Shown: one piece after another, positions 575 through 16,036 of the stretch | How positions within the stretch are numbered: position 1 is the first letter of the stretch | Layout of the letters: each line of letters starts with the position of its first letter | Virus record (IMG/VR): IMGVR_UViG_2778261161_000005 | Direction: 5' to 3' (one strand) | Source: a virus | Taxonomy: Duplodnaviria > Heunggongvirae > Uroviricota > Caudoviricetes | Length of the DNA stretch: 17,337 bases | Program-made: the position numbers and the translations under genes | Notes under the pieces: model-generated | What the model was told of the DNA's origin: nothing | Seen by the model: only the letters and a program-made list of their open reading frames with translations | Databases searched by the model: none

Positions 575-1399
575 TCAGGCGGTGAAAGTACCAATAAAGG
601 TTTCTACTTTGCTGTCTTTGAATTTCTCAACAAGCAGATCACGAAATTCGTTAGCCATATCTTCCTGCACCGCTTCCAGCTGAATAATGCGCAGAACCAG
701 TACAGGACGATCGCCAGTGATAATGCTGAGGCGTAATTTAAACGGACGTTCTTTCAGACCTTCAAACGGAACGCATTTAATTTCAAATGCCACTGGCATA
801 ATGTCTTTGGTCTTCGCTTCGACAGATTCCATCAGGGAGCGTTTGCCGCTGAAGTCATTATCTTCAAAATCAGCGGTCTGGTTTGCTTCAATCGTGATTT
901 TACGGACTGCCGCAGCTGCTTTTGTTGCCTGAATAGCGTCACCATTAGCATCAAAGCCCACAAGGTAGTCGGCCCAGTCTTCAATCCATTCTGCCAGTGA
1001 CTTCTGGGAGTTACGCTCGCCGTTAACAGACAACAGGGCAGAGAACGGTGCTGTCTTTTTCAGTTTGAGAGTGGCGGTGTTATCTGCGTGACCTGGTTCA
1101 TCAATAGTACCCAGGTTAAGTACACTGACGGCACGCATATTATCAGCATCGATAAAGCAGCGGGTGCCTTCATCTGCAAGATCTTTAGAATAACGGGTAA
1201 AGTCATCGATGCTGGCAGTGGAAAGCGCACCACGGAAACGGAAGCGATTTAAATTAAATTTTTCCAGATCATGAATGCGGAAATTCTCAGGCAATACCAC
1301 AGCATCGGCACCAATCTTACTGATAATTTCATTAACACCCTGAGCAGAAATAAGGGCATGGATTTGATTAATTGCGGTTGCGTCTAAGTTCTGAGACAT
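575..1399 (-). CDS. yfdQ: DUF2303-like prophage protein (YfdQ-like), 274 aa
   Basis: Long ORF from the six-frame track; the 274-aa length and position between a 120-aa ORF and an HD-domain gene match the CPS-53 yfdP-yfdQ-yfdR arrangement as I recall it. Confidence 0.6.
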
Positions 1400-1464: not shown

Positions 1465-1827
1465 TTAATGACCTGCTGCGCGTAGTTTTCCGTCAGGTTC
1501 ACCGGCAAGAGTCAGTAATTGTCCCTGGTCTTCCTGCAGAATAGTCAGGCGACCACCGCGATTGACATACATCGGCGTTTCGGTGGTGTCTTCTTCGGAA
1601 ATTTTCCCGCGGTTAGTCGGGCGAACATATGAGAGTTTGTGTTTGATTTTCACACGGTTCTCATCAAATGGTTCGATTTCCAGGTTGAGTGAGACCTTAC
1701 CTTTGGTTTTCGTGTTCATCACACCGGAAGCGACTTCACTGAGAACTGCGCCGATTTTGGTTTCAAATACGCCGCCGTCCAGCTCCCCGATAAATGCCTG
1801 CACATCAGTACTGCGTTCGCTAGCCAT
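1465..1827 (-). CDS. small prophage protein, YfdP-like (120 aa); the track ORF 1465..2058 is trimmed to the ATG at 1825-1827
   Basis: The internal ATG (MASERSTDVQAF...) is preceded by GGAGCAGCAAA (SD GGAG). The upstream part of the track ORF is Cys/Arg-rich and lies inside the GC-rich noncoding stretch, so the longer start is unlikely. Confidence 0.55.
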   Translation of the reverse strand: MASERSTDVQAFIGELDGGVFETKIGAVLSEVASGVMNTKTKGKVSLNLEIEPFDENRVKIKHKLSYVRPTNRGKISEEDTTETPMYVNRGGRLTILQEDQGQLLTLAGEPDGKLRAAGH

Positions 1828-2423
1828 TTTGCTGCTCCTCATCATATCGACCCTGCAAGGTCGGTTGGTTTCTCCACAAAACAGAGAAGAACACCTGCGG
1901 TGGCAGCCGCCCGGATGGATTGGGTTATGAGCCCGTCGTCCGGTGATGCTCTTCTCTGTTTTGTAAAAAGAGCGGTACCAGCCGGAAGCAAGTGTACAAA
2001 CTGGTACCGCCAAAGCAGTGGCTGTTGTGGTGGGGTTGTCACTCAGGCGTATGGTCAACCTGACAATCCGGTGTCCTCAACGGGGAAAGAGTAACCCAGC
2101 CATACTTACCGCCGCGCCATTTCGCGGATGACCACAACGCTGAGAGCACTTAGCCAGTTACGGCACCACACTTTGTCGCGGCTCCATAAATGCCCTCATC
2201 GTTGCACCCTGGTCTCTTCCCAGGCGTCAAACCGGATCGCCACGCTGGTTAGGCGTCTTATCAGCATCATCATTGACTTGCACATTCCGGCTACCTGGTT
2301 TGTTTGCCCTAGCAAGGAGTGGATTGTCCCCTTTAACGTCCCCAGACCGCTAACGACGCATGTGCCATACGCCGTGTTACAACCAAATTTTGTTTGAATC
2401 TTGCCTGCCTCATGTTTCTTTTG

Positions 2424-2456
2424 GATACATTATGTATCTCATAGGTACATTGTCAA
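2424..2456 (-). promoter_or_regulatory. leftward sigma70-like promoter (pL-like) with overlapping operator palindrome
   Basis: On the minus strand: TTGACA (plus 2451-2456), 16-nt spacer, CATAAT (plus 2429-2434). The perfect palindrome GATACAT-T-ATGTATC (2424-2438) overlaps the -10. Confidence 0.45.
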
Positions 2457-2458
2457 GT

Positions 2459-2483
2459 ATAAAAAAACCTGCCGAAGCAGGTT
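2459..2483 (-). terminator. rho-independent terminator of the repressor gene
   Basis: Minus-strand hairpin AACCTGC-TTCG-GCAGGTT followed by a U-run (plus-strand A-run 2459-2467), 13 nt after the repressor stop codon. Confidence 0.6.
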
Positions 2484-2495
2484 CATAAATATTGA

Positions 2496-3170
2496 TTAGG
2501 CCTTTATTGTGTATCTTCTTGGTTTTCCCGAGAAAATCACTGTACCAATTATAGAGCAATTACCGTTAATCTTAATGTAAGGCTCAGGCCAGTTTGGGTT
2601 TAATGCTTTGAGATAACGCTGTGTTCCATCTTCTATCAATCGCTTGAAGGTGGTTTCGCCTGTATCGTGCATCAATGCAATAACGTCGTCACCGTGGCAG
2701 GCAGGGACTTCGGGATCAACAAAAATCATGTCTCCAGGGCGGTACTCATCAATCATTGAATCACCAATCACCCGCAAGATATAAGTCATTTCGCCACAGG
2801 GTACAGGGCAGGGATACGTTTCTGCTGTGCTCAAATCAACCTCAGAATAGCCAACTTCTTTCCATGCTCCGGCCTGTACCCATGATATGACAGGGACTAA
2901 CGTTATTTGTTTGTTAGTGATTGAAACATCAGGTTTTTTTGTGATGTTCGTTGTCTGGTGTTCTTGATCAAGCCATCCGACAGGCAGGTCGAAACATTTT
3001 TCGATGTGCCGTGCCATGCTGTCACCGATATTTTTAGTAGCGCCATCCCCCATAAACCTGCTGGTTTGGGTTGGCTCGCGATCAATCATGGTGGCAAAGG
3101 ATGAATTTCCGCCAACACCATCTCTCAGTTTTCTGGCGTTAGACCGCCGGATGTCATGGATTGTTTTCAT
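2496..3170 (-). CDS. prophage repressor, cI/LexA-like with C-terminal S24 peptidase domain (224 aa)
   Basis: C-terminal half carries the Ser (GDSM) and Lys (TFKRL) motifs of S24 self-cleaving repressors and a candidate Ala-Gly cleavage site (VQAGAW). Divergently arranged with a Cro-like gene. Confidence 0.8.
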   Translation of the reverse strand: MKTIHDIRRSNARKLRDGVGGNSSFATMIDREPTQTSRFMGDGATKNIGDSMARHIEKCFDLPVGWLDQEHQTTNITKKPDVSITNKQITLVPVISWVQAGAWKEVGYSEVDLSTAETYPCPVPCGEMTYILRVIGDSMIDEYRPGDMIFVDPEVPACHGDDVIALMHDTGETTFKRLIEDGTQRYLKALNPNWPEPYIKINGNCSIIGTVIFSGKPRRYTIKA

Positions 3171-3185
3171 AACGAAATTAAAACC

Positions 3186-3209
3186 TTTGTACCGATAAGG
3201 TACAAGTAC
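3186..3209. promoter_or_regulatory. operator-like overlapping palindromes in the repressor/cro divergent intergenic region
   Basis: TTGTACC-GATAA-GGTACAA (3186-3204) overlapping GGTAC-AA-GTACC (3198-3209); three GTAC cores spaced about 10 bp apart between the divergent repressor and cro starts. Confidence 0.45.
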
Positions 3210-3260
3210 CTTGAAGGTTCATTTCAATCATGTAATGTGTATACTGGAGGTACATATTGT

Positions 3261-3461
3261 ATGAAAGCGTATTGGGACTCTTTAACCAAAGAACAGCAGG
3301 GCGAGTTGGCCGGAAAAGTTGGCTCAACACCTGGCTACTTACGGCTGGTTTTCAATGGTTATAAAAAAGCCAGTTTTGTGCTGGCGAAAAAACTTGAGCA
3401 ATGCACGTCAGGTGCAATTACGAAATCTGACTTAAGACCGGATATCTACCGTGACATTTGA
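3261..3461 (+). CDS. Cro-like/YdaS-family small HTH regulator (66 aa)
   Basis: ATG at 3261 with GGAGG SD at 3246-3250; small protein with an HTH-like core (GELAGKVGSTPGYLRLV) and a C-terminal LRPDIY motif; divergent from the S24 repressor. The track ORF 3156..3461 is trimmed. Confidence 0.7.
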   Translation: MKAYWDSLTKEQQGELAGKVGSTPGYLRLVFNGYKKASFVLAKKLEQCTSGAITKSDLRPDIYRDI

Positions 3462-3550
3462 AGAGAAGTATGGCTCCCAACTGGAGCTGATATTTCGTTT
3501 TATCGATCGTGCGCTGGCAATTGGCGTACTGGCGTAAGTGGAGAACGAGC

Positions 3551-4303
3551 ATGAACCTTGAAGCCTTACCAAAATATTACTCCCCAAAATCTCCAAAATT
3601 GAGTGATGCCGCACCGGCGACAGGCTCAGGTGGTTTAACGATTACGGATGTGATGGCTGCGCAGGGGATGGTGCAGTCGAAAGCACCGCTTGGGTTTGCC
3701 TTATTCCTGGCAAAAGCTGGCGTTCAGGATCCTCAGTTTGCGATTGAAGGTCTGCTCAATTACGCGATGGCACTGGATAACCCGACATTGAACAAATTGA
3801 GTGAAGAAATCCGGTTACAGATCATCCCTTACCTTGTGAGTTTTGCCTTTGCTGATTATTCCAGGTCTGCGGCAAGTAAGGCTCGCTGTGAGCCTTGTGC
3901 TGGTACTGGATTTCATAATGTATTGCGCGAAGTGGTGAAATACTCCAGAAGCGGGGAGTCTGTTATCAAGGAAGAGTGGGTGAAGGAACTATGTCAGCAT
4001 TGTCATGGTAAGGGAGAAGTCAGCACAGCGTGCAGAGGGTGTAAGGGTAAAGGTATTGTCCTGGATGAAAAAAGGACCCGGCTTCATGGCGCGCCTGTTT
4101 ATAAGATTTGTGGGCGTTGCAATGGAAACCGGTTTAGTCGTTTACCAACGACACTGGCGCGGTGTCATGTCCAGAAGCTGGTACCAGACCTGACTGATTA
4201 TCAGTGGTACAAAGGATATGCAGATGTCATTGATAAACTGGTTACAAAGTGCTGGCAGGAAGAAGCATATGCTGAGGTGCAATTAAGAAAAGTGACGAGA
4301 TAA
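3551..4303 (+). CDS. quuQ: late-gene antitermination protein Q (QuuQ/QuuD-like, 250 aa)
   Basis: ATG at 3551 with GGAG SD; several Cys-x2-Cys pairs (CEPCAGTG, CQHCHGKG, CRGCKGKG, CGRCNGN) typical of phage-82-type Q proteins; immediately followed by a promoter plus terminator pair. The track ORF 3509..4303 is trimmed. Confidence 0.75.
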   Translation: MNLEALPKYYSPKSPKLSDAAPATGSGGLTITDVMAAQGMVQSKAPLGFALFLAKAGVQDPQFAIEGLLNYAMALDNPTLNKLSEEIRLQIIPYLVSFAFADYSRSAASKARCEPCAGTGFHNVLREVVKYSRSGESVIKEEWVKELCQHCHGKGEVSTACRGCKGKGIVLDEKRTRLHGAPVYKICGRCNGNRFSRLPTTLARCHVQKLVPDLTDYQWYKGYADVIDKLVTKCWQEEAYAEVQLRKVTR

Positions 4304-4334
4304 ATGATTTTCGCCGAAGATGGCGACGTAATGC

Positions 4335-4363
4335 TTGCATTTTTCAAAAAATATGGATAAAAT
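4335..4363 (+). promoter_or_regulatory. pR'-like late promoter
   Basis: TTGCAT (4335-4340), 17-nt spacer, TAAAAT (4358-4363), 32 bp downstream of the Q stop. Confidence 0.6.
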
Positions 4364-4408
4364 TTTTTCAACGATGGGCTTTATATACCCGACGTTAAGA
4401 AAAAGTAG

Positions 4409-4434
4409 AAAACCCGCTGATGAGCGGGTTTTTG
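4409..4434 (+). terminator. tR'-like rho-independent terminator
   Basis: Hairpin AACCCGC-TGATGA-GCGGGTT followed by TTTTT, about 45 nt downstream of the predicted pR' start site. Confidence 0.65.
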
Positions 4435-4718
4435 TGCTTTAAATAGGGTAATAGAGATGTTGAATCTCATTCCGGGATTCATGTTTGTTTACTTATTATT
4501 TATCGGGTGACTTTGCCTGATGTTTAAAATGTTTTCTTCCAGTACTATGTCCCTAGATACAATGAGTCTGCATATTACATTATTAGCAGAGCTATTACGG
4601 TCAAAGTACAGCATAAGCTTTTAAAGCCAATCAACCAGTCATCAAGACAGACGGGGTTATTCATGAAAACTCTCCATGTTTGATTCGATGGGGCCTGAAA
4701 TTAAAGCTTTAATATAGC

Positions 4719-4931
4719 TCATGAAAGGTAAACATTGGCAGCTGAAGGGCCACGCAGACCATTTATCCGGCAAAATTCCACGCGTAATCCGGTGGTAATT
4801 TCTTCTGCATCGCGGAGATTGAGCGCTGAAACATGAAGCTGGACATCGATACGACCATCGGATGGGGTGATAAGACCCTTGCCGCTTTTGCCGTCAAAGG
4901 TTTTGACAATTCCTGTCATTTTACGGGACAA
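4719..4931 (-). CDS. cspF: cold-shock-like protein CspF (70 aa)
   Basis: Translation [27 protein letters not shown]...[10 protein letters not shown] matches the CspF/CspH subfamily as recalled; divergent from cspB as in Qin. Confidence 0.85.
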
Positions 4932-5231
4932 AAAAATTCCTTAATACTGATAACTGGGCGCACTATACACACGTTCCTGAAGAAAGCTATAGTTTTTTGA
5001 TGGGGTTGAAGATGGCTGGATGTCTAAAATAAACATTGCTTCATATGTTCAACTATGCGTTAATGATTGCGTCGGTTTGAAGAACAGACGATATACGAAG
5101 TAGTTTACTAAAGCAGTTCTCATTTCAGGTGTTATTCACTTATTCCTTCTTTGAGTCTCTCCAATTAAGTACGAAGTCGTTTCTGTTATACAAGCCATTT
5201 ATGCCGAAAGGCTCAAGTTAAGGAATGTAGA

Positions 5232-5447
5232 ATGTCAAATAAAATGACTGGTTTAGTAAAATGGTTTAACGCTGATAAAGGTTTTGGCTTTATTTCTCCT
5301 GTTGATGGTAGTAAAGATGTGTTTGTGCATTTTTCTGCGATTCAGAATGATAATTTTCGAACCTTATTTGAAGGTCAAAAGGTTACCTTCTCTGTAGAGA
5401 GTGGTGCTAAAGGTCCTGCAGCAGCAAATGTCATAATTACTGATTAA
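5232..5447 (+). CDS. cspB: cold-shock protein CspB (71 aa)
   Basis: Translation [38 protein letters not shown]... carries the RNP1 (KGFGFI) and RNP2 (VFVHF) motifs; about 270 nt of upstream leader-length DNA as in cspA-family genes. Confidence 0.9.
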
Positions 5448-5728
5448 AATTCATAGTTTGTCTGTATACGATAACGAAGAAGGCTGATGCCTGAGTGGAG
5501 ATACAGACAGAGTGGTGAATATTGGATCTCTTTAATAAATAGTAAGGAGGTCCAATACATGAAACAATGGCCAGCATATTTGGCAATAACTTAATCAGGA
5601 AAAGTATGCTAACCATTGTGGTGAAGTGCAGGTTTGCTGCATGAATAGTTTTACAGCAGAAGCTAACTGCTGGCATAGCAAAACAAAGTGCGTAAGTGGA
5701 TGACTCCCACAAAAAGTACCACAATATT

Positions 5729-5752
5729 AAACCCGCTCAGGCGGGTTTTTTA
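5729..5752. terminator. rho-independent terminator, possibly bidirectional
   Basis: Hairpin AACCCGC-TCAG-GCGGG followed by TTTTTT on the plus strand and a shorter U-run on the minus strand; lies between the cspB region and the convergent minus-strand zinc-ribbon ORF. Confidence 0.55.
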
Positions 5753-5810
5753 TTATCTGCTTTAAATATGTTATTAAAATATAAAAAATACTTGTTACGA
5801 ATAAAATCAA

Positions 5811-6032
5811 TCAAGCTACAGCTTTAAGATTTGTCTGGAATACTTTGTTGCAATGAGGGCAGATCAAAAGGGCACCTTTTTGTACTCTTGAAAAACTGTG
5901 TTCTGACTCTTGGGTGCAGTTTGGGCAGGAACATTTAACGAGATAATTACGGCGTGATTTTGAGTCTTTACGTTCTGACATAGGCTTTTCCTGTATAAAT
6001 GGCCGTATACAGTACACTAAATATGAAAACAT
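5811..6032 (-). CDS. small basic zinc-ribbon protein (CxxC...CxxC), function unknown; the start may be the internal ATG at 5979-5981 (56 aa)
   Basis: Track ORF; two CxxC pairs (CPNC, CPHC) and a basic N-terminus (SERKDSKSRR). The internal ATG has a better SD (AGGAAA) than the first ATG. Confidence 0.45.
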   Translation of the reverse strand: MFSYLVYCIRPFIQEKPMSERKDSKSRRNYLVKCSCPNCTQESEHSFSRVQKGALLICPHCNKVFQTNLKAVA

Positions 6033-6199
6033 ATCTCGTATTATTATTTAATATATGATTTTCTTTTAAAATAATTACCCACATTTTTAATGTGTCTGTT
6101 TTTTAGCGCCGTTGAGAACAACGTTTGCTATAAAAACTAACCCATAGACTCCGATCTTTTCAAACATATTGCACCATCTGTGTACATCGGGGTGAGGAT

Positions 6200-6415
6200 A
6201 TGAAATCAATGGATAAGTTAACAACAGGTATCGCCTATGGCACATCGGCTGGTAATGCTGGTTTCTGGGCATTGCAGTTACTCGATAAAGTAACTCCGTC
6301 ACAGTGGGCTGCAATCGGTGTGCTGGGTAGTCTGGTTTTTGGCCTGCTGACGTATCTGACAAACCTTTATTTCAAGATTAAAGAAGACAGGCGTAAGGTT
6401 GCGAGAAGAGAGTAA
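6200..6415 (+). CDS. essQ: class II (phage-21 S-like) holin/pinholin with dual-start motif
   Basis: Translation [28 protein letters not shown]... is 71 aa with two hydrophobic segments and a charged C-terminus; the MKSM N-terminus gives two possible starts (Met1/Met4); lies directly upstream of the lysis genes. Confidence 0.85.
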
Positions 6416-6419
6416 TCCA

Positions 6420-6971
6420 ATGACACAAGACTATGAACTGGTTGTGAAAGGAGTCCGCAATTTTGAGAATAAAGTGGCGGTAACTGTAGCCTTACGGGAC
6501 AAAAAACGCTTTGACGGTGAAATTTTTGACCTGGACATCTCGCTGGACCGTGTTGAAGGTGCCGCGCTGGAGTTTTATGAGGCAGCAGCCAGAATGAGAA
6601 TCAGACAGGTATTCCTGGATGTTGCTGCCGGGTTATGTGTAGGGGATGAGCAGTCGCCGGAAAAGCGCCCCATAATTTTAGAGGCGCAGAATGTGTGGAT
6701 AACCTACAAAGGAAAGCTACCGGGAAGAATTACTGGTTCTCTGAAGACGCCACCGACGGCATTGCGGTCAGAAAAAGATGATATTGAATCGCCCATTGAA
6801 AAACTGGAGGGCAGCGTCGCTGATCTGAATAAAAAATTGTCGGTGCTGATCCCTTCTGAAGATGAAAAAAAACGCCGCGATGAGCAGTTTGCGGCGTTTT
6901 ACGATTATTGCATTGAAGTTACTCGCAGGAATTTTGTGAAGATTTTTGAGGAGGGTAAATCTCTTCAGTAA
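6420..6971 (+). CDS. YdfR-like (DUF1327) lysis-cassette protein with a long C-terminal extension
   Basis: ATG at 6420 (MTQDYELVVKGVRNFENK...) with its SD inside the holin 3' end; the N-terminal roughly 100 aa resemble YdfR as recalled. The track start at 6399 is a TTG inside the holin gene. Confidence 0.6.
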   Translation: MTQDYELVVKGVRNFENKVAVTVALRDKKRFDGEIFDLDISLDRVEGAALEFYEAAARMRIRQVFLDVAAGLCVGDEQSPEKRPIILEAQNVWITYKGKLPGRITGSLKTPPTALRSEKDDIESPIEKLEGSVADLNKKLSVLIPSEDEKKRRDEQFAAFYDYCIEVTRRNFVKIFEEGKSLQ

Positions 6972-7179
6972 GCTTAATGGCGGACGCTGCAATTAATTCA
7001 GGAAGGTCCGCAAGGTCATCTGTCAGTGGATATGATGAAAAATCGGCGGCAGTTCTGTTAAGAAGCGCTTTAACTAATTCCTTTTCCTTCTCCGGCAACA
7101 AGTTGATTAGAGCTACGACTGCTTGCCTGAGTGCGATTAAATCAGCAAAAGTTTGTTTTGGTAGATTTGTGTAATCCAT
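6919..7179 (-). CDS. hypothetical small helical protein, antisense within the lysis cassette (about 86 aa)
   Basis: Minus-strand ORF with ATG at 7177-7179 preceded by AGAGGTG SD; the track start at 7185 is a GTG. It occupies the 320-bp gap between the YdfR-like gene and the lysozyme gene and overlaps the YdfR-like 3' end by about 50 nt. No recognisable family. Confidence 0.35.
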   Translation of the reverse strand: MDYTNLPKQTFADLIALRQAVVALINLLPEKEKELVKALLNRTAADFSSYPLTDDLADLPELIAASAIKLTEEIYPPQKSSQNSCE

Positions 7180-7292
7180 AGTCACCTCTGTGTTTATCAG
7201 ATTGACATCCTCCTCCCGCCAGTGCCCATCACTGGTGAGGTAAGATTTAACATATCCGGGGATTTGAAGCCGATAAATCCTGATAAATATCC

Positions 7293-8320
<1,028 letters not shown>

Positions 8321-10630: not shown

Positions 10631-10798
10631 AAAAGGCTAGTTTTTGCATTTTTATCGGCCACCATCATCTTTGCATCTTATTGATTATTAATGGTTGTTT
10701 GTTTTTTGTATGTCGAATTGAGTGTTTTTTGTTCGACATCGAACGCGTTTTCTTAAAGTTGTTCGCACGATGCATGTTTAAAGCTCTCCGGAGGAAAT

Positions 10799-11290
10799 AT
10801 GGATCATGAGTTGAAAAACCTGGTGCTGAATATTAATCAACTGGCGGCTTTATCTGGTCTGCACCGCCAGACTGTCGTGGCAAGACTGAAAAACATTCGT
10901 CCCGCTGGTGGACATGACAAACTCAAGCTATACCGGTTGACCGATATTCTGACTGAATTTATGGGGTTACCACCGCCGGTTGCTGAGGGCGAAATGGATC
11001 CACATGAACGCAAAGCCTGGTATCAGTCTGAACGTGAGCGTCTTAAGTTCGAACAGGAAACGGCACAACTCATTCCGGCCAGTGATGTCAGACGGGAGTT
11101 TGCCATCTGGGCAAAAGCGGTCGTGCAGGTGCTGGAGACATTACCGGATATTCTGGAACGTGACTGCGGCCTGCAGCCTGCCGCTGTGAGCCGTGTTCAG
11201 TCCATTATTGATGATCTGCGCGATCAGATAGCCCTGCGGGTGACCGAAGCAGGTGCGGATGATGAGGAGGAATTACAGCAGGAGGAGTAA
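10799..11290 (+). CDS. terminase small subunit, Nu1-like (NohA/NohD-type), 163 aa
   Basis: N-terminal winged-HTH pattern (NINQLAALSGLHRQTVVARLKN...GG...KLYRLTDIL) like lambda Nu1; acidic C-terminus; preceded by the cos-like site; stop overlaps the next ATG. Confidence 0.65.
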   Translation: MDHELKNLVLNINQLAALSGLHRQTVVARLKNIRPAGGHDKLKLYRLTDILTEFMGLPPPVAEGEMDPHERKAWYQSERERLKFEQETAQLIPASDVRREFAIWAKAVVQVLETLPDILERDCGLQPAAVSRVQSIIDDLRDQIALRVTEAGADDEEELQQEE

Positions 11291-11790
11291 TGCTGAATCA
11301 GGAAACCGCAAAGGCAGCACGAACCGATTCAGGTTATATCCTTCGCGCACCGAGACGAATGCGGGTTGCTGATGCCGTTGCTCAGTATATGCGGGTGAAA
11401 GACCGGGTGAATAACGCGTTATGGCGTGACTCGCCAGGTCCCGGCTATGTGCATTTCCCTGACTGGCTGGGGAGCTGGTTTTACGACGAACTGACGTATG
11501 AAGAGCGGAGCAGTGACGGGAAATGGAGTAAGCCGGGTCGCGGTGCCAACGAAGCTTTTGACCTGATGGTGTATGCCGAGGCTCTGGTCATTCTGCATGG
11601 ATACGAAAAGATCCGCTGGCCGGATGCACCGGAGTGGGCGAGCCGGGAAACCTGGCTGGAGTGTGTCCCGGACAGTACCGAACCGTCACCCACACCGGAA
11701 CCGGTATCCACGCCTGTTAAAAAACAAAAACGGAAGAAAACAGTAACTGACGATGTTAACCCCTGGCTGACTTCCGGAGGATGGTTATGA
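11290..11790 (+). pseudogene. terminase large subunit remnant (gpA-like C-terminal region only, 166 codons)
   Basis: Translation aligns to the C-terminal roughly 130 aa of lambda gpA as recalled (PGYVHFP vs PGAVHFP; RGANEAFDLMVYAEAL vs RRNEALDCFVYALAAL). The ATPase and nuclease core domains expected in a roughly 640-aa protein are absent. Confidence 0.6.
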
Positions 11791-11999
11791 ACCAGAATGA
11801 TATCGAAGCCATGATTCAGCGTTATACGGAAGCTGAAATGGCGGTGCTGGACGGAAAATCCGTCACCTTTAATGGTCAGCAGATGACCATGGAAAACTTA
11901 TCTGAGATCCGGCAGGGACGGCAGGAGTGGGAGCGCCGCCTTGCGGCTCTGATTACACGACGACGGGGGCATCCCGGGTACCGGCTTGCGAGGTTCTGA
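11787..11999 (+). CDS. head-to-tail joining protein, gpW-like (about 70 aa)
   Basis: Small ORF between terminase and portal, as lambda W is; ATG at 11787 with GGAGG upstream; stop overlaps the portal ATG (TGATG). Confidence 0.6.
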   Translation: MNQNDIEAMIQRYTEAEMAVLDGKSVTFNGQQMTMENLSEIRQGRQEWERRLAALITRRRGHPGYRLARF

Positions 12000-13507
12000 T
12001 GGCAATTCTTGATGATGTGATTGGCGTTTTTTCACCAGGATGGAAAGCGGCAAGGCTGCGTTCCCGTGCGGTGATCCAGGCTTATGAGGCCGTAAAAACG
12101 ACGCGGACACACAAAGCCCGGCGGGAAAACCGAACTGCCGACCAGTTAAGCCAGTACGGGGCCGTGTCGTTACGTGAGCAGGCCCGTTACCTTGATAACA
12201 ACCACGATCTGGTCATTGGTGTATTTGACAAGCTGGAAGAACGGGTGGTGGGGAAAAACGGGATTATTGTCGAGCCACATCCGGTATTACGCAATGGGGC
12301 CATTGCCCGTGATCTGGCAGCGGAGATACGCACCCGATGGAGTGAATGGTCTGTCAGTCCGGAAGTCACCGGGCAGTTTACCCGTCCGATGCTGGAACGT
12401 CTGATGTTGCGTACCTGGCTGCGCGATGGTGAGGTGTTTGCCCAGATGGTTTCCGGGCGCATAAACAGCCTGACGCCTTCTGCCGGTGTTCATTTCTGGC
12501 TGGAGGCGCTCGAGCCGGACTTTATTCCCATGACCAGTGATGAGAGCAACAGGCTGAATCAGGGCGTGTTTGTTGATGACTGGGGGCGTCCCGAAAAATA
12601 TCTGGTGTATAAAAGCCGTCCCGTATCCGGACGGCAGATGGAAACCAAAGAAGTGGATGCAGAGCGAATGCTGCATCTTAAATTTGTTCGCCGTCTGCAC
12701 CAGATGCGCGGGACGTCTTTGTTGTCCGGTGTGCTGATCCGCCTCAGTGCCCTGAAAGAGTATGAAGATTCTGAGCTGACTGCAGCAAGGATCGCCGCTG
12801 CTCTGGGGATGTACATCCGGAAAGGCGACGGGCAGAGCTATGAACCGGATGGTAATGGCAGCAAGGATAAGGAACGCGAGCTTACCATTCAGCCAGGCAT
12901 TATTTACGACGATCTGAAACCCGGCGAAGAAATCGGAATGGTGAAGTCGGATCGCCCCAATCCTAATCTTGAAACTTTTCGTAATGGTCAGTTGCGTGCC
13001 GTGGCGGCGGGCAGTCGTCTGAGTTTTTCCAGTACAGCGCGCAACTATAACGGCACTTACAGCGCCCAGCGTCAGGAGCTGGTTGAATCCACTGATGGCT
13101 ACCTGATCCTGCAGGACTGGTTTATTGGTGCCGTCACCCGCCCGATGTATCGTGCCTGGCTGAAACAGGCTGTGGCATCCGGTGTTATCAGGCTACCCCG
13201 CGATCTTGATCGTTCTTCACTGTATACCGCGGTGTATTCCGGACCGGTGATGCCGTGGATTGACCCTGTTAAGGAGGCTGAGGCCTGGAAAATTCAGATT
13301 CGTGGTGGAGCGGCGACAGAATCAGACTGGGTACGTGCAGGTGGTCGTAATCCGGATGATGTCAAACGTCGGCGCAAGGCCGAAATTGATGAAAACCGCA
13401 AGCTGGATCTGGTATTTGATACCGATCCGGCCAGTGATAAAGGAGGCAGCAGTGCCGCAACGAAACGACAGGAGCCGCAGCACACCGACGACCAGTCCGA
13501 AGAATAA
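11999..13507 (+). CDS. portal protein (lambda gpB family), about 502 aa
   Basis: Long ORF directly after the W-like gene, with the size and position expected for a lambda-like portal; ATG at 11999 ([11 protein letters not shown]...). The track ORF 11927..13507 is trimmed. Confidence 0.7.
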
Positions 13508-13520
13508 TTCCTGGTTCAGG

Positions 13521-15461
13521 ATGCAGGCAGGTCACCAGAGTGACGCGGATATTTATATTTATGACGAGATTGGTTTCTGGGGTGTTACGGCGAAGCAGTT
13601 TATCAGTGATCTGAATGCACTGGGCGATATCACCCACATTAAGGGACGCTTCCTGAACAACATTAACGCGGTCAGTAAAACAGACTTTGCTGATAAGCGT
13701 GGTATGCGTTATGTGCGGGTTAACGCTCCTGCAGGTGCAACATCTGGAAAATATTACCCTGTTGTTGTTATGCGTTCTGCTGGCTCAGTAAGCGAACTGG
13801 CATCAAGGGTCATTATCACCACGGCAACGCGAACCGCAGGCGATCCGATGAATAACTGCGAGTTTAACGGATTTGTTATGCCTGGTGGCTGGACTGACAG
13901 GGGGCGTTATGCTTATGGAATGTTCTGGCAATATCAAAACAATGAACGAGCCATCCACTCAATAATGATGAGTAATAAGGGCGATGATTTGCGCTCTGTG
14001 TTCTATGTTGATGGCGCTGCTTTCCCTGTTTTTGCGTTTATCGAAGATGGCCTGTCAATATCCGCACCTGGTGCTGATCTCGTTGTTAATGATACGACCT
14101 ATAAGTTTGGGGCAACAAATCCAGCGACTGAATGTATCGCGGCGGACGTTATCCTTGATTTTAAGAGTGGGCGTGGTTTTTATGAGTCTCATTCGTTAAT
14201 CGTTAACGATAACTTGTCGTGCAAAAAACTTTTTGCCACAGACGAAATTGTAGCGCGTGGTGGTAATCAGATTCGAATGATAGGTGGGGAGTATGGTGCA
14301 TTATGGCGTAATGATGGCGCTAAAACTTACCTGCTGCTTACCAATCAAGGTGATGTTTATGGTGGCTGGAATACATTAAGACCGTTTGCTATTGATAACG
14401 CAACCGGCGAGCTGGTTATTGGAACCAAACTGTCCGCAAGTCTGAACGGTAATGCATTAACAGCAACAAAGCTGCAAACGCCAAGACGGGTTTCTGGTGT
14501 TGAGTTTGATGGTTCCAAAGATATTACTTTAACCGCCGCGCATGTGGCTGCTTTTGCCAGAAGAGCAACGGATACGTATGCCGATGCGGATGGGGGCGTT
14601 CCATGGAATGCCGAATCAGGCGCTTACAATGTCACCCGCTCTGGCGACAGCTATATTCTGGTTAACTTCTATACCGGAGTCGGAAGTTGCCGGACCCTGC
14701 AGATGAAGGCGCATTACAGAAATGGAGGTCTGTTCTACCGTTCCTCAAGAGATGGCTATGGTTTTGAGGAAGACTGGGCAGAAGTTTATACCTCGAAAAA
14801 TCTTCCACCAGAAAGCTACCCAGTCGGCGCACCAATCCCGTGGCCATCAGATACCGTTCCGTCTGGTTATGCCCTGATGCAGGGGCAGACTTTTGACAAA
14901 TCTGCATACCCGAAACTTGCAGCCGCTTATCCGTCAGGCGTGATCCCTGATATGCGTAGCTGGACGATTAAGGGCAAACCTGCCAGTGGTCGGGCCGTAT
15001 TGTCTCAGGAACAGGACGGCATTAAATCGCACACCCACAGCGCCAGCGCATCCAGTACGGATTTGGGGACGAAAACCACATCGTCGTTTGATTACGGCAC
15101 TAAATCCACGAATAACACCGGGGCGCATACGCACAGTGTGAGCGGTACAGCCGCAAGTGCCGGAAACCATACTCATAGTGTCACAGGCGCATCAGCAGTC
15201 AGCCAGTGGTCACAAAATGGGTCAGTACATAAGGTAGTGTCTGCGGCCAGTGTGAATACAAGTGCTGCAGGAGCGCACACTCATAGTGTTAGCGGCACAG
15301 CCGCATCTGCAGGTGCTCACGCACATACTGTCGGTATTGGTGCTCATACGCACTCTGTTGCGATTGGCTCACATGGACACACTATCACCGTTAACGCTGC
15401 TGGTAACGCGGAAAACACCGTCAAAAACATCGCATTTAACTACATTGTGAGGCTTGCATAA
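13521..15461 (+). CDS. chimeric ORF: ClpP-type prohead protease N-terminus (about 37 aa) fused in frame to a side tail fibre protein (Stf-like)
   Basis: First ATG after the portal stop; the N-terminus [28 protein letters not shown] matches the start of ClpP-family prohead proteases, then the sequence switches to tail-fibre-like repeats and ends with a tail-collar region ([42 protein letters not shown]), His-rich HxH repeats and [11 protein letters not shown]. The track ORF 13260..15461 overlaps the portal in another frame. Confidence 0.65.
15121..15313 (+). repeat. imperfect direct repeats of about 43 bp within the stf 3' region
   Basis: GGGCGCATACGCACAGTGTGAGCGGTACAGCCGCAAGTGCCGG (15121-15163) and GGAGCGCACACTCATAGTGTTAGCGGCACAGCCGCATCTGCAGG (15270-15313), both encoding [15 protein letters not shown]. 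Confidence 0.7.
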
Positions 15462-16036
15462 TGGCATTCAGAATGAGTGAACAACCACGGACCATAAAAA
15501 TTTATAATCTGCTGGCCGGAACTAATGAATTTATTGGTGAAGGTGACGCATATATTCCGCCTCATACAGGTCTGCCAGCAAACAGTACCGATATTGCACC
15601 GCCAGATATTCCGGCAGGCTTCGTGGCTGTTTTCAACAGTGATGAGGCATCGTGGCATCTCGTTGAAGACCATCGGGGTAAAACGGTTTATGACGTAGCG
15701 TCAGGGGACGCGTTATTTATTTCTGAACTCGGTCCGTTACCGGAAAATGTTACCTGGTTATCGCCGGAAGGGGAGTTTCAGAAGTGGAACGGCACAGCCT
15801 GGGTGAAAGATGCAGAAGCAGAAAAACTGTTCCGGATCCGGGAGGCGGAAGAAACAAAAAACAGCCTGATGCAGGTAGCCAGTGAGCATATTGCGCCGCT
15901 TCAGGATGCTGCAGATCTGGAAATTGCAACGGAGGAAGAAATCTCGTTGCTGGAAGCATGGAAAAAGTATCGGGTATTGCTGAACCGTGTTGATACGTCA
16001 ACTGCACAGGATATTGAATGGCCAGCACTGCCGTAG
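15461..16036 (+). CDS. tail fibre assembly protein (Tfa), 191 aa
   Basis: Translation [39 protein letters not shown]... matches TfaQ/TfaR-type proteins as recalled; start overlaps the stf stop (TAATG). Confidence 0.85.

Follow-up and report, generated by a model that had tools for sequence, protein, structure and literature searches.

Phages of the SfV family and the defective element e14 of Escherichia coli K-12 are the closest described relatives of the locus reported here. SfII, SfIV and SfV have no cII, cIII or N gene (PMC3851460), and intact members of this N-less family have the antiterminator gene Q on the same strand as cro, several kb further downstream. The e14 element (cohE/ymfK, croE/ymfT, ymfL, ymfM) has the same immunity type; its repressor CohE is listed as SOS-sensitive (PMC8249747), and ymfM, which lies downstream of cro, gives an SOS-inducible, LexA-independent SfiC phenotype, i.e., filamentation (bioRxiv 10.1101/2020.11.19.390815; PMC6206680). 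Here, we analyzed a stretch of 17,337 nucleotides (nt) of viral DNA (IMG/VR record IMGVR_UViG_2778261161_000005), referred to below as the window and used for all coordinates, in which a CI-type repressor gene (2496..3170, minus strand) and a divergent cro gene (3261..3461, plus strand) are followed directly by Q (3551..4303, plus strand). An earlier reading of the letters alone (the original prediction) had pointed to this adjacency, and the open reading frame (ORF) map and Pfam place all three genes where it had put them.

Comparison with intact relatives indicates that the adjacency of cro and Q is the product of a rightward deletion in a defective prophage of SfV/e14 type. We consider it quite probable that the joint arose in this way as one outcome of a deletion hot spot in cro, and that it left a working path from the repressor, through the rightward promoter PR and Q, to the lysis genes.

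Results

Comparison with described phages and prophages

The window agrees with SfV and its relatives (SfIV, Ayreon, 2H10 and phi-cdtI) in its early-left genes, which correspond to SfV orf29-32 (yfdS, yfdR, yfdQ and yfdP), and in its putative operator region. With SfV itself it shares the repressor (222 of 224 residues identical to SfV cI), Cro (63 of 66 residues identical to the annotated SfV protein) and a DUF968-Q gene pair, with Q being 97% identical at the DNA level; like the family as a whole, it lacks N and lambda-type cII and cIII (PMC3851460). The window differs from SfV and Ayreon in missing the stretch between codon 63 of cro and the 3' end of the DUF968 gene, which measures 6,073 base pairs (bp) in SfV and 5,423 bp in Ayreon. 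It is also unlike the SfV family in its late region, which carries Qin-type morons (cspF, cspB, ynfU and cspI), and in having lost most of its structural genes. The e14 element is a deletion-riddled SfV-type remnant as well and has nearly the same immunity proteins (223 of 224 repressor residues and 62 of 66 Cro residues identical to those of the window); however, cro, ymfL and ymfM (which encodes the division inhibitor SfiC) are intact in e14, whose compared part has no annotated Q or lysis gene, whereas the window kept Q and the lysis genes and lost ymfL onwards.

From position 3447 rightward the window resembles the Qin prophage of K-12: positions 3447-6625 (DUF968 tail, Q, cspF, cspB, ynfU and holin) are 94.7% identical to Qin and the rrrQ-rzpQ block (7283-8307) is 91.3% identical, while the Qin gene names used for cspI to ydfK come from the annotation of relatives, that part of Qin lying outside our comparison. 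The left arm of Qin is another matter. It holds dicA/dicC, ydfX, flxA, relBE, hokD, rem and ydfU at full length; it lacks an S24 repressor and places Q about 4.4 kb from dicC, and the window left of 3447 shows no similarity to it. The prediction that this left arm is unlike that of Qin was therefore correct, the arm being of SfV/e14 type. On these comparisons, the window is a hybrid remnant of SfV/e14 and Qin type rather than a Qin variant equipped with a new switch. With lambda it has in common the divergent CI/Cro switch, the structural family of Q, and a predicted short transcript from a putative late promoter PR' that would end at a strong terminator. It differs from lambda in lacking an N/nut stage (with no search aimed at nut sites) as well as cII, O, P and nin genes, and in a Q that contains an extra CXXC zinc-finger insert and lies 89 nt, not several kb, past cro.

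Origin of the cro-Q junction

The closest relative of the window, a prophage of strain GmM066 (locus L001), aligns with it in two collinear blocks: window 1-3451 matches L001 12001-15452 at 99.5% identity and window 3447-10651 matches L001 19159-26377 at 99.4% (local BLAST). The two blocks overlap by 5 nt (TACCG, 3447..3451), and the same overlap is found against SfV (95-98% identity) and Ayreon, which places the deletion junction at this point. The sequence missing between codon 63 of cro and the 3' end of the DUF968 gene amounts to 3.7 kb relative to GmM066, compared with the larger SfV and Ayreon intervals given above; GmM066 already lacks part of the SfV cro-Q gene set. At the nucleotide level, the window reads cro ...GGATATC(TA)CCGTGACATTTGAAGAG..., and the parental sequences read cro ...GGATATC(TA)TCCGAAAGATTAA and DUF968 ...GCGGA(TA)CCGTGGCATTTGAAGAG; the crossover thus fell within a 2-bp TA microhomology (3448-3449). 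As a result, Cro' (the altered protein) comprises 63 native residues and three new ones (RDI replacing PKD), ended by a chance stop codon, and the spacer before Q consists of an 87-nt 3' remnant of the DUF968/HNH gene (3452..3538, plus strand), which is out of frame with cro and retains its own stop codon (3536-3538). The identity of this remnant was established by aligning it with the DUF968 gene in GmM066, SfV and Ayreon, where that gene is intact; the SfV homolog (orf45) encodes a product with Pfam DUF968 and HNHc_6 domains.

Between cro and Q, SfV carries ten genes (orf36-orf45) and Ayreon nine. The SfV block encodes YmfL, an Ash-family protein, orf38, a replication protein with HTH_36/DnaD_N domains, a PerC-like protein, Dam, a protein with a LexA DNA-binding domain, RusA, a KilA-N protein and the DUF968/HNHc_6 protein. 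Hence, the early-right genes that had been reported as absent from the window are present in SfV, Ayreon and GmM066 and missing here; no replication gene occurs anywhere in the window, and head genes occur in it as fragments only (ORF map and comparison with GmM066). The accompanying claim that no N and no cII-like gene is present needs to be divided. Both are indeed absent from the window, with no credible ORF for N in 1828-2495 (nut sites not searched for); yet the absence of N and of a lambda-type cII is a trait of the family and not a sign of decay, while the homolog of the phage 186 type CII that relatives do have between cro and Q, YmfL, was deleted here. YmfL of SfV (orf36, L005 8093-8644) matches, with an E value of 7.9e-15, the Pfam family Phage_CP76, which is the CII family of phage 186. 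A CII-type regulator may accordingly exist in the SfV family despite the literature, which looked for lambda-type factors (PMC3851460). Because the intact N-less relatives also have Q downstream of cro in the same orientation, gene order suggests that the deletion most likely shortened an existing path from repressor to Q rather than creating one.

The junction is rare. In our phage collection, positions 2400-3451 match the cI-cro region of SfV, SfIV, Ayreon, 2H10 and phi-cdtI (95-99.6%) and positions 3447-4400 match other phages in their DUF968-Q region; the two parts together are not covered by any phage in the collection. Among 5,426 complete E. coli genomes, most matches start exactly at 3447 and continue at 100% identity to position 8000; this DNA, Q allele included, is 100% identical in CFT073 and the prophages of many other strains. 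None of the 5,426 genomes has the exact junction and only two have cro within about 660 nt of Q, and neither exact nor degenerate junction patterns were found in GTDB species representatives or JGI metagenome contigs. The window is 100% identical to contig NTPM01000023.1 of assembly GCA_002463805.1, and the junction was otherwise found only by looking up the exact Cro' protein, which occurs on about 30 contigs, every one of them with Q 89 nt downstream. At least 24 of the contigs with the junction are from independent public assemblies, and the joint is therefore real and inherited rather than an assembly error.

One may still ask whether the joint is a natural mosaic boundary of a compact, functional phage, or a chimeric contig, instead of a deletion. 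Lambdoid genomes are mosaic, and the interval from cro to ymfL does contain a natural mosaic boundary: the parental cro-ymfL sequence is not contiguous in about 380 complete genomes, and nearly all of those sampled match the 5' end of ymfL only. However, a mosaic or a chimera does not account for a spacer that is an out-of-frame gene tail, for a Cro that has lost its last three codons, or for a relative at the same chromosomal locus that is 99.5% identical on both flanks and carries an extra 3.7 kb, and neither does it fit the missing replication genes, the fragmentary head genes and the recurrence of the identical junction in independent assemblies. We give this alternative almost no weight and, as far as sequence data reach, take it as already refuted.

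An apparent second cro-Q joint, in strain XL10-Gold (H3), was discarded; it is in reality e14, positioned 3' of Qin rzpQ, and the rule used for merging hits had made one hit of the two. In that K-12 derivative (L003 10414-11832; NZ_CP081008.1), e14 (intE, xisE ... ymfK) sits directly 3' of Qin rzpQ and beside a Lit-family pseudogene, which implies a large rearrangement between e14 and Qin.

Clustering of deletion ends in cro

The position at which the window leaves cro is not unique to it. Three prophages in other strains, Z0117EC0005 and EC25 (both at the prfC site) and SHP24 (at the thrW site), also exit cro within GGATA and in the rightward direction. In the complete genome of Z0117EC0005, where the prophage, like that of GmM066, is related to the window and sits between yjjG and prfC, the joint reads GGA(TA)CACGCG and leaves a 252-nt DUF968 remnant. 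In the complete genome of SHP24, with a different, quuD-type Q, it is an in-register (CGGATA)CCGCGG joint at the same DUF968 site as in the window. Both of these end in DUF968 just before Q, whereas the EC25 deletion has a different right end, a terminator that precedes lom, and has taken Q and all the lysis genes with it.

Altogether, we identified at least 12 distinct DNA junctions within 7 nt of cro, GGA-TA-TC-TA (codons 61-63), all of them rightward and with 2-8 bp of microhomology. These are found at window positions 3440-3451 (the site in L001 being 15436-15452) and in loci L002, L004, L017, L045, L080, L109, L134, L135, L138, L139 and L141. The site in cro is GGATATCTA, within ...CCGGATATCTATCCG..., and forms a small palindrome, CGGATA-TC-TATCCG (palindrome stretch CGGATATCTATCCG). 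For the junctions with identified parents, the microhomologies are TA (four times), TATC, TATCT, CGGATA and CGGATATC; the right ends lie in DUF968 (two sites), holin, the head-gene region, terminase, ymfQ upstream of the tail-fiber genes (L134) and the terminator upstream of lom. When IMG/VR was scanned for the 3' end of cro, 115 of 119 loci were parental and four had new sequence directly after GGATA or GGATATC, and none of the 119 had a break in the next 25 nt. Scans of the whole IMG/VR collection returned two loci with GGATA followed by a base other than T and six with GGATATC followed by a base other than T, compared with no reciprocal case (right side kept, left side replaced) against these eight rightward loci.

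The protein data agree with the DNA. A search with Cro' retrieved about 45 distinct fusion proteins of 64-116 amino acids (aa) that are 100% identical to Cro as far as D61 or I62 and then diverge; apart from one further-mutated variant (P0049), GAT is followed by A in every case, so that GGATA is kept. Their tails are in-frame DUF968 ends, fragments of the Q-lambda family, a tail-fiber C-terminus and a holin end. Of the 59 variants retrieved, about 11 depart from the Cro sequence ahead of residue 61, and several of these are frameshifts, contig-end partials or distant homologs. It should be mentioned that the protein survey is blind to breaks outside the ORF and that the DNA sample past the stop codon is small. 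The abundant Cro homologs of Klebsiella and Salmonella show essentially no such fusions, and their DNA lacks the full CGGATA-TC-TATCCG palindrome. Of the 5,426 complete E. coli genomes, 1,312 have the parental cro-ymfL joint; judging from a spread sample, a break at the hot spot appears to occur in roughly 1-2% of the complete genomes that carry this cro.

We think it somewhat more probable than the contrary that the 3' end of SfV/e14-type cro is a sequence-dependent, one-directional deletion hot spot, and, with the same modest confidence, that it repeatedly strips the lethal early and late genes while sparing the repressor, the promoters and most of cro. Possible causes are a hairpin or palindrome, stalling of the replication fork at a bound protein, and a nuclease. 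The hairpin predicted at the site (5-bp stem and 4-nt loop, on both strands) is weak and not significant (z-scores of -0.7 to -1.8), and by reasoning no known recombinase or nuclease site fits. The same kind of reasoning led us to set aside a Pin/Gin-type crossover site (the half-sites do not fit), an EcoRV-type cut at GATATC (GGAT is invariably followed by the parental A, and the partner sites have no GATATC), targeting by a type I-E CRISPR (clustered regularly interspaced short palindromic repeats) system (the direction of deletion is wrong for an upstream AAG protospacer-adjacent motif), protection by Chi (no Chi is nearby), and selection for a functional Cro, which fails to explain the clustering at the nucleotide level and the empty 25 nt downstream. 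Our literature search for a described deletion hot spot found nothing.

Three further observations were made around these sites. One candidate fusion (P0007/L136) was excluded as read-through into a Nextera adapter; in this contig end (Logan ERR11264780) the adapter CTGTCTCTTATACACATCT starts exactly after GGATATC of cro, at the same nucleotide as the junction cluster found in vivo. The mosaic boundary in the cro-ymfL spacer (L001 15446-15480) lies just to the right of the hot spot, and nearly all sampled members of the group of about 380 genomes match the first 33 nt of ymfL only. Finally, a gene for the anti-phage sirtuin Dsr1 lies at the left edge of the prophage remnant at the prfC site of EC25 (L141 1-2166).

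Since deletions of the same origin end anywhere, and since EC25 lost Q together with the lysis genes, the adjacency of cro and Q appears incidental, and the joint is best read as an accidental outcome of a recurrent deletion route and not as a selected or purpose-built design. The opposite case would be a domesticated SOS-triggered lysis switch, that is, a joint selected because it leads quickly from the repressor through Q to lysis, the benefit being, for example, altruistic lysis or release of cell contents. Such a switch would fit the intact cI, cro', Q, PR', terminator tR', holin, lysozyme and spanin genes and elements, the inheritance of the junction in the roughly 30 contigs, and the fact that Z0117EC0005 and SHP24 also keep Q right after a cro::DUF968' joint. 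The right ends of the same-origin deletions are, however, scattered; EC25, at the same chromosomal site, has neither Q nor lysis genes, and complete E. coli genomes offer no exact copy of the junction and only the two close cro-Q pairs mentioned above. Further, two of the three Q-retaining joints share a DUF968 site with a 6-bp microhomology to cro (CGGATA), which explains the recurrence without selection, the third joint (Z0117EC0005) lying 165 nt upstream with a TA match only. Therefore, we find selection for a lysis switch quite unlikely.

Proposed path from the repressor to the lysis genes

The repressor (224 aa, ymfK/cohE type) has a full-length S24 autopeptidase domain (Pfam PF00717, E 1.5e-26, profile positions 1-116 of 116), in which motifs assign the cleavage site to Ala100-Gly101 (VQAGAW), and the Ser-Lys dyad to Ser138 (GDSM) and Lys176 (FKRL); residues 1-90 have no Pfam helix-turn-helix match. 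By homology to e14 CohE, RecA-stimulated cleavage of this repressor is plausible. Its gene and cro are divergent, on opposite strands and 90 nt apart. The region between them (3187..3255) is equivalent, by offset in the alignment, to the annotated "putative operator region" of SfV and contains palindromes GTACC-N5-GGTAC at 3190-3204 and, as a near copy, at 3206-3220, within an inverted repeat at 3188-3221; matches to a generic GGTAC-N6-GTAC operator pattern were not above chance. On the left side, a strong leftward promoter resembling PL (TTGACA-16-CATAAT, 2429..2456, minus strand) has 11 of 12 consensus matches, and the annotation of Ayreon has a promoter at the equivalent place. An intrinsic terminator ends the repressor transcript (2465..2484, minus strand; fold -11.6 kcal/mol, z-score -4.1), with terminators annotated at the matching place in SfV and Ayreon. 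Cro' (66 aa) shows weak Pfam matches below the family cut-offs (YdaS_toxin, E 1.7e-5; HTH_3, E 6.5e-3) and is a small single-domain protein, so that the longer multi-domain protein considered by the original prediction does not apply.

The 250-aa protein is a true Q antiterminator of the ydfT type, the identity on which the predicted arrangement depended. It matches Pfam Antiterm (PF03589, E 1.3e-52) and, through its inserted CXXC zinc-finger region, DnaJ_CXXCXGXG, and it matches solved Q-lambda structures (7UBM, E 1.4e-36; 4MO1; 7UBJ). A 264-aa ORF from GTG 3509 was rejected as an upstream extension produced by ORF listing, given that relatives annotate ATG 3551, which is preceded by GGAG. 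The Q allele of the window has CEPC in the first CXXC motif, compared with CEHC in SfV and K-12 Qin, and LARCH where those have LARHH or LARRH. The 89-nt gap between cro and Q, formed by the DUF968 remnant, has no other gene and no significant fold (z-score -1.25).

Downstream of Q, a late promoter resembling PR' was read from the sequence (4335..4378, plus strand): TTGCAT-17-TAAAAT (4335-4363), followed by CAACGATGGG (4369-4378). An intrinsic terminator resembling tR' follows about 65 nt past the PR' start (4409..4440, plus strand; hairpin -21.3 kcal/mol, z-score -5.7, and a match in the terminator scan). This whole stretch, PR', CAACGATGGG and tR', is near-invariant across Ayreon, K-12 Qin and GmM066, and the Ayreon annotation has a terminator at the place of tR'. 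The CAACGATGGG region seems to resemble the lambda PR' pause region, and on that likeness we presume that it holds putative Q-binding and pause elements. The lysis cassette (6200..8320, plus strand) comprises the essQ holin (6200-6415; Phage_holin_2_1), a ydfR-like DUF1327 gene (6420-6971; DUF1327), the rrrQ lysozyme (7293-7826; Phage_lysozyme) and the Rz-like gene rzpQ (7823-8320; DUF2514) with an embedded frame for an Rz1-like lipoprotein (7974-8270), identified by Pfam and the annotation of relatives, and all five frames are intact. The ydfR-like ORF is 183 aa long in the window compared with 103 aa in K-12; the annotations of GmM066 and Z0117EC0005 treat it as a truncated pseudogene.

From these elements, we propose that the CI-type repressor would keep PR closed until SOS induction, when RecA-stimulated self-cleavage at Ala100-Gly101 would open it; cro' and Q would then be co-transcribed across the 89-nt spacer, which has no convincing terminator, and Q would load at the conserved PR' and take RNA polymerase past tR' and past the terminator that follows cspB, as far as the intact genes for holin, lysozyme and spanins. 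SOS control of Q, as originally predicted, is plausible. The extension of this control to the cold-shock genes, which were said to be gated almost directly, needs correction: cspB and cspI each carry their own cspA-type cold-shock leader (Rfam), and cspF and ynfU run antisense to late transcription, on the other strand, and therefore the cold-shock genes are not simply under Q control. The leader and gene of cspB span 5071..5510 on the plus strand (cspB itself 5232-5447; thermoregulator RF01766, 156 bits; Pfam CSD).

Several points weigh against this proposed working. The consensus promoter scan called neither PR nor the repressor promoter PRM in 3171-3260, and the hexamers of both are candidates assigned by eye only; the C-terminus of Cro' is changed; and the terminator scan flagged a weak hairpin in the spacer (3471-3489), which lies within the DUF968 coding sequence and is conserved in intact phages. 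In addition, DNA damage should make a direct wiring from the repressor through Q to lysis costly, and yet the lineage persists (about 30 contigs), so the circuit may be weak or silent. Accordingly, the architecture could be real while the element is an inert fossil, whether through silencing, weakness of PR, a defect in Cro' or Q, or a shortage of Q; the region would then simply be waiting to decay further. The heavy erosion of the rest of the prophage (terminase and portal fragments, and fused tail-fiber ORFs), the persistence of a lineage whose wiring should be lethal and the failure of the scan to call PR all accord with such a state. Conversely, every ORF of the path from cI through cro' and Q to lysis is full length, the block from Q to rzpQ is 100% identical to widely distributed copies, and the PR-operon genes of the homologous e14 are SOS-inducible in K-12 (bioRxiv 10.1101/2020.11.19.390815). 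We therefore hold an inert circuit to be doubtful, albeit a possibility to be taken seriously, and favor the working path from repressor to lysis genes left behind by the deletion.

Other features of the window

At the left, a yfdQ-like early gene (DUF2303; 575..1399, minus strand) is supported by Pfam PF10065 (E 2.7e-92), by the annotation of yfdQ in relatives and by 97.8% identity to the SfV orf31 region, and a yfdP-like gene (1465..1827, minus strand) is supported by Pfam YfdP and by yfdP annotated at the equivalent position in L001 and L002. The right arm (10651-15461) is further eroded: it holds a DUF1441 gene, a terminase fragment of 166 aa and a gpW-like ORF, and its portal ORF (11927-13507) overlaps a tail-fiber ORF of 733 aa that starts at 13260; beyond about 10650 the window diverges from both GmM066 and Z0117EC0005. 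Within the 3' part of a tail-fiber assembly gene there is a full-length match to Rfam IS009 (15804-16002, plus strand; 221 bits), and a pin invertase gene adjoins it.

Discussion

Taken alone, the cro-Q joint represents routine prophage erosion, and its value lies in correcting the annotation. Nonetheless, the element provides a natural minimal chain consisting of a repressor that is SOS-sensitive by homology, Q and the lysis genes. The recurrent deletion route is the more interesting lead. If the hot spot is true, it yields remnants that hold immunity only, or immunity plus Q and lysis genes such as the window, and the clustering of dozens of independent deletions at two to three codons suggests a preferred path of decay in which immunity is kept and killing functions are shed. 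With this prophage family present in about one quarter of complete E. coli genomes (1,312 of 5,426), such a path would bear on how prophages are domesticated.

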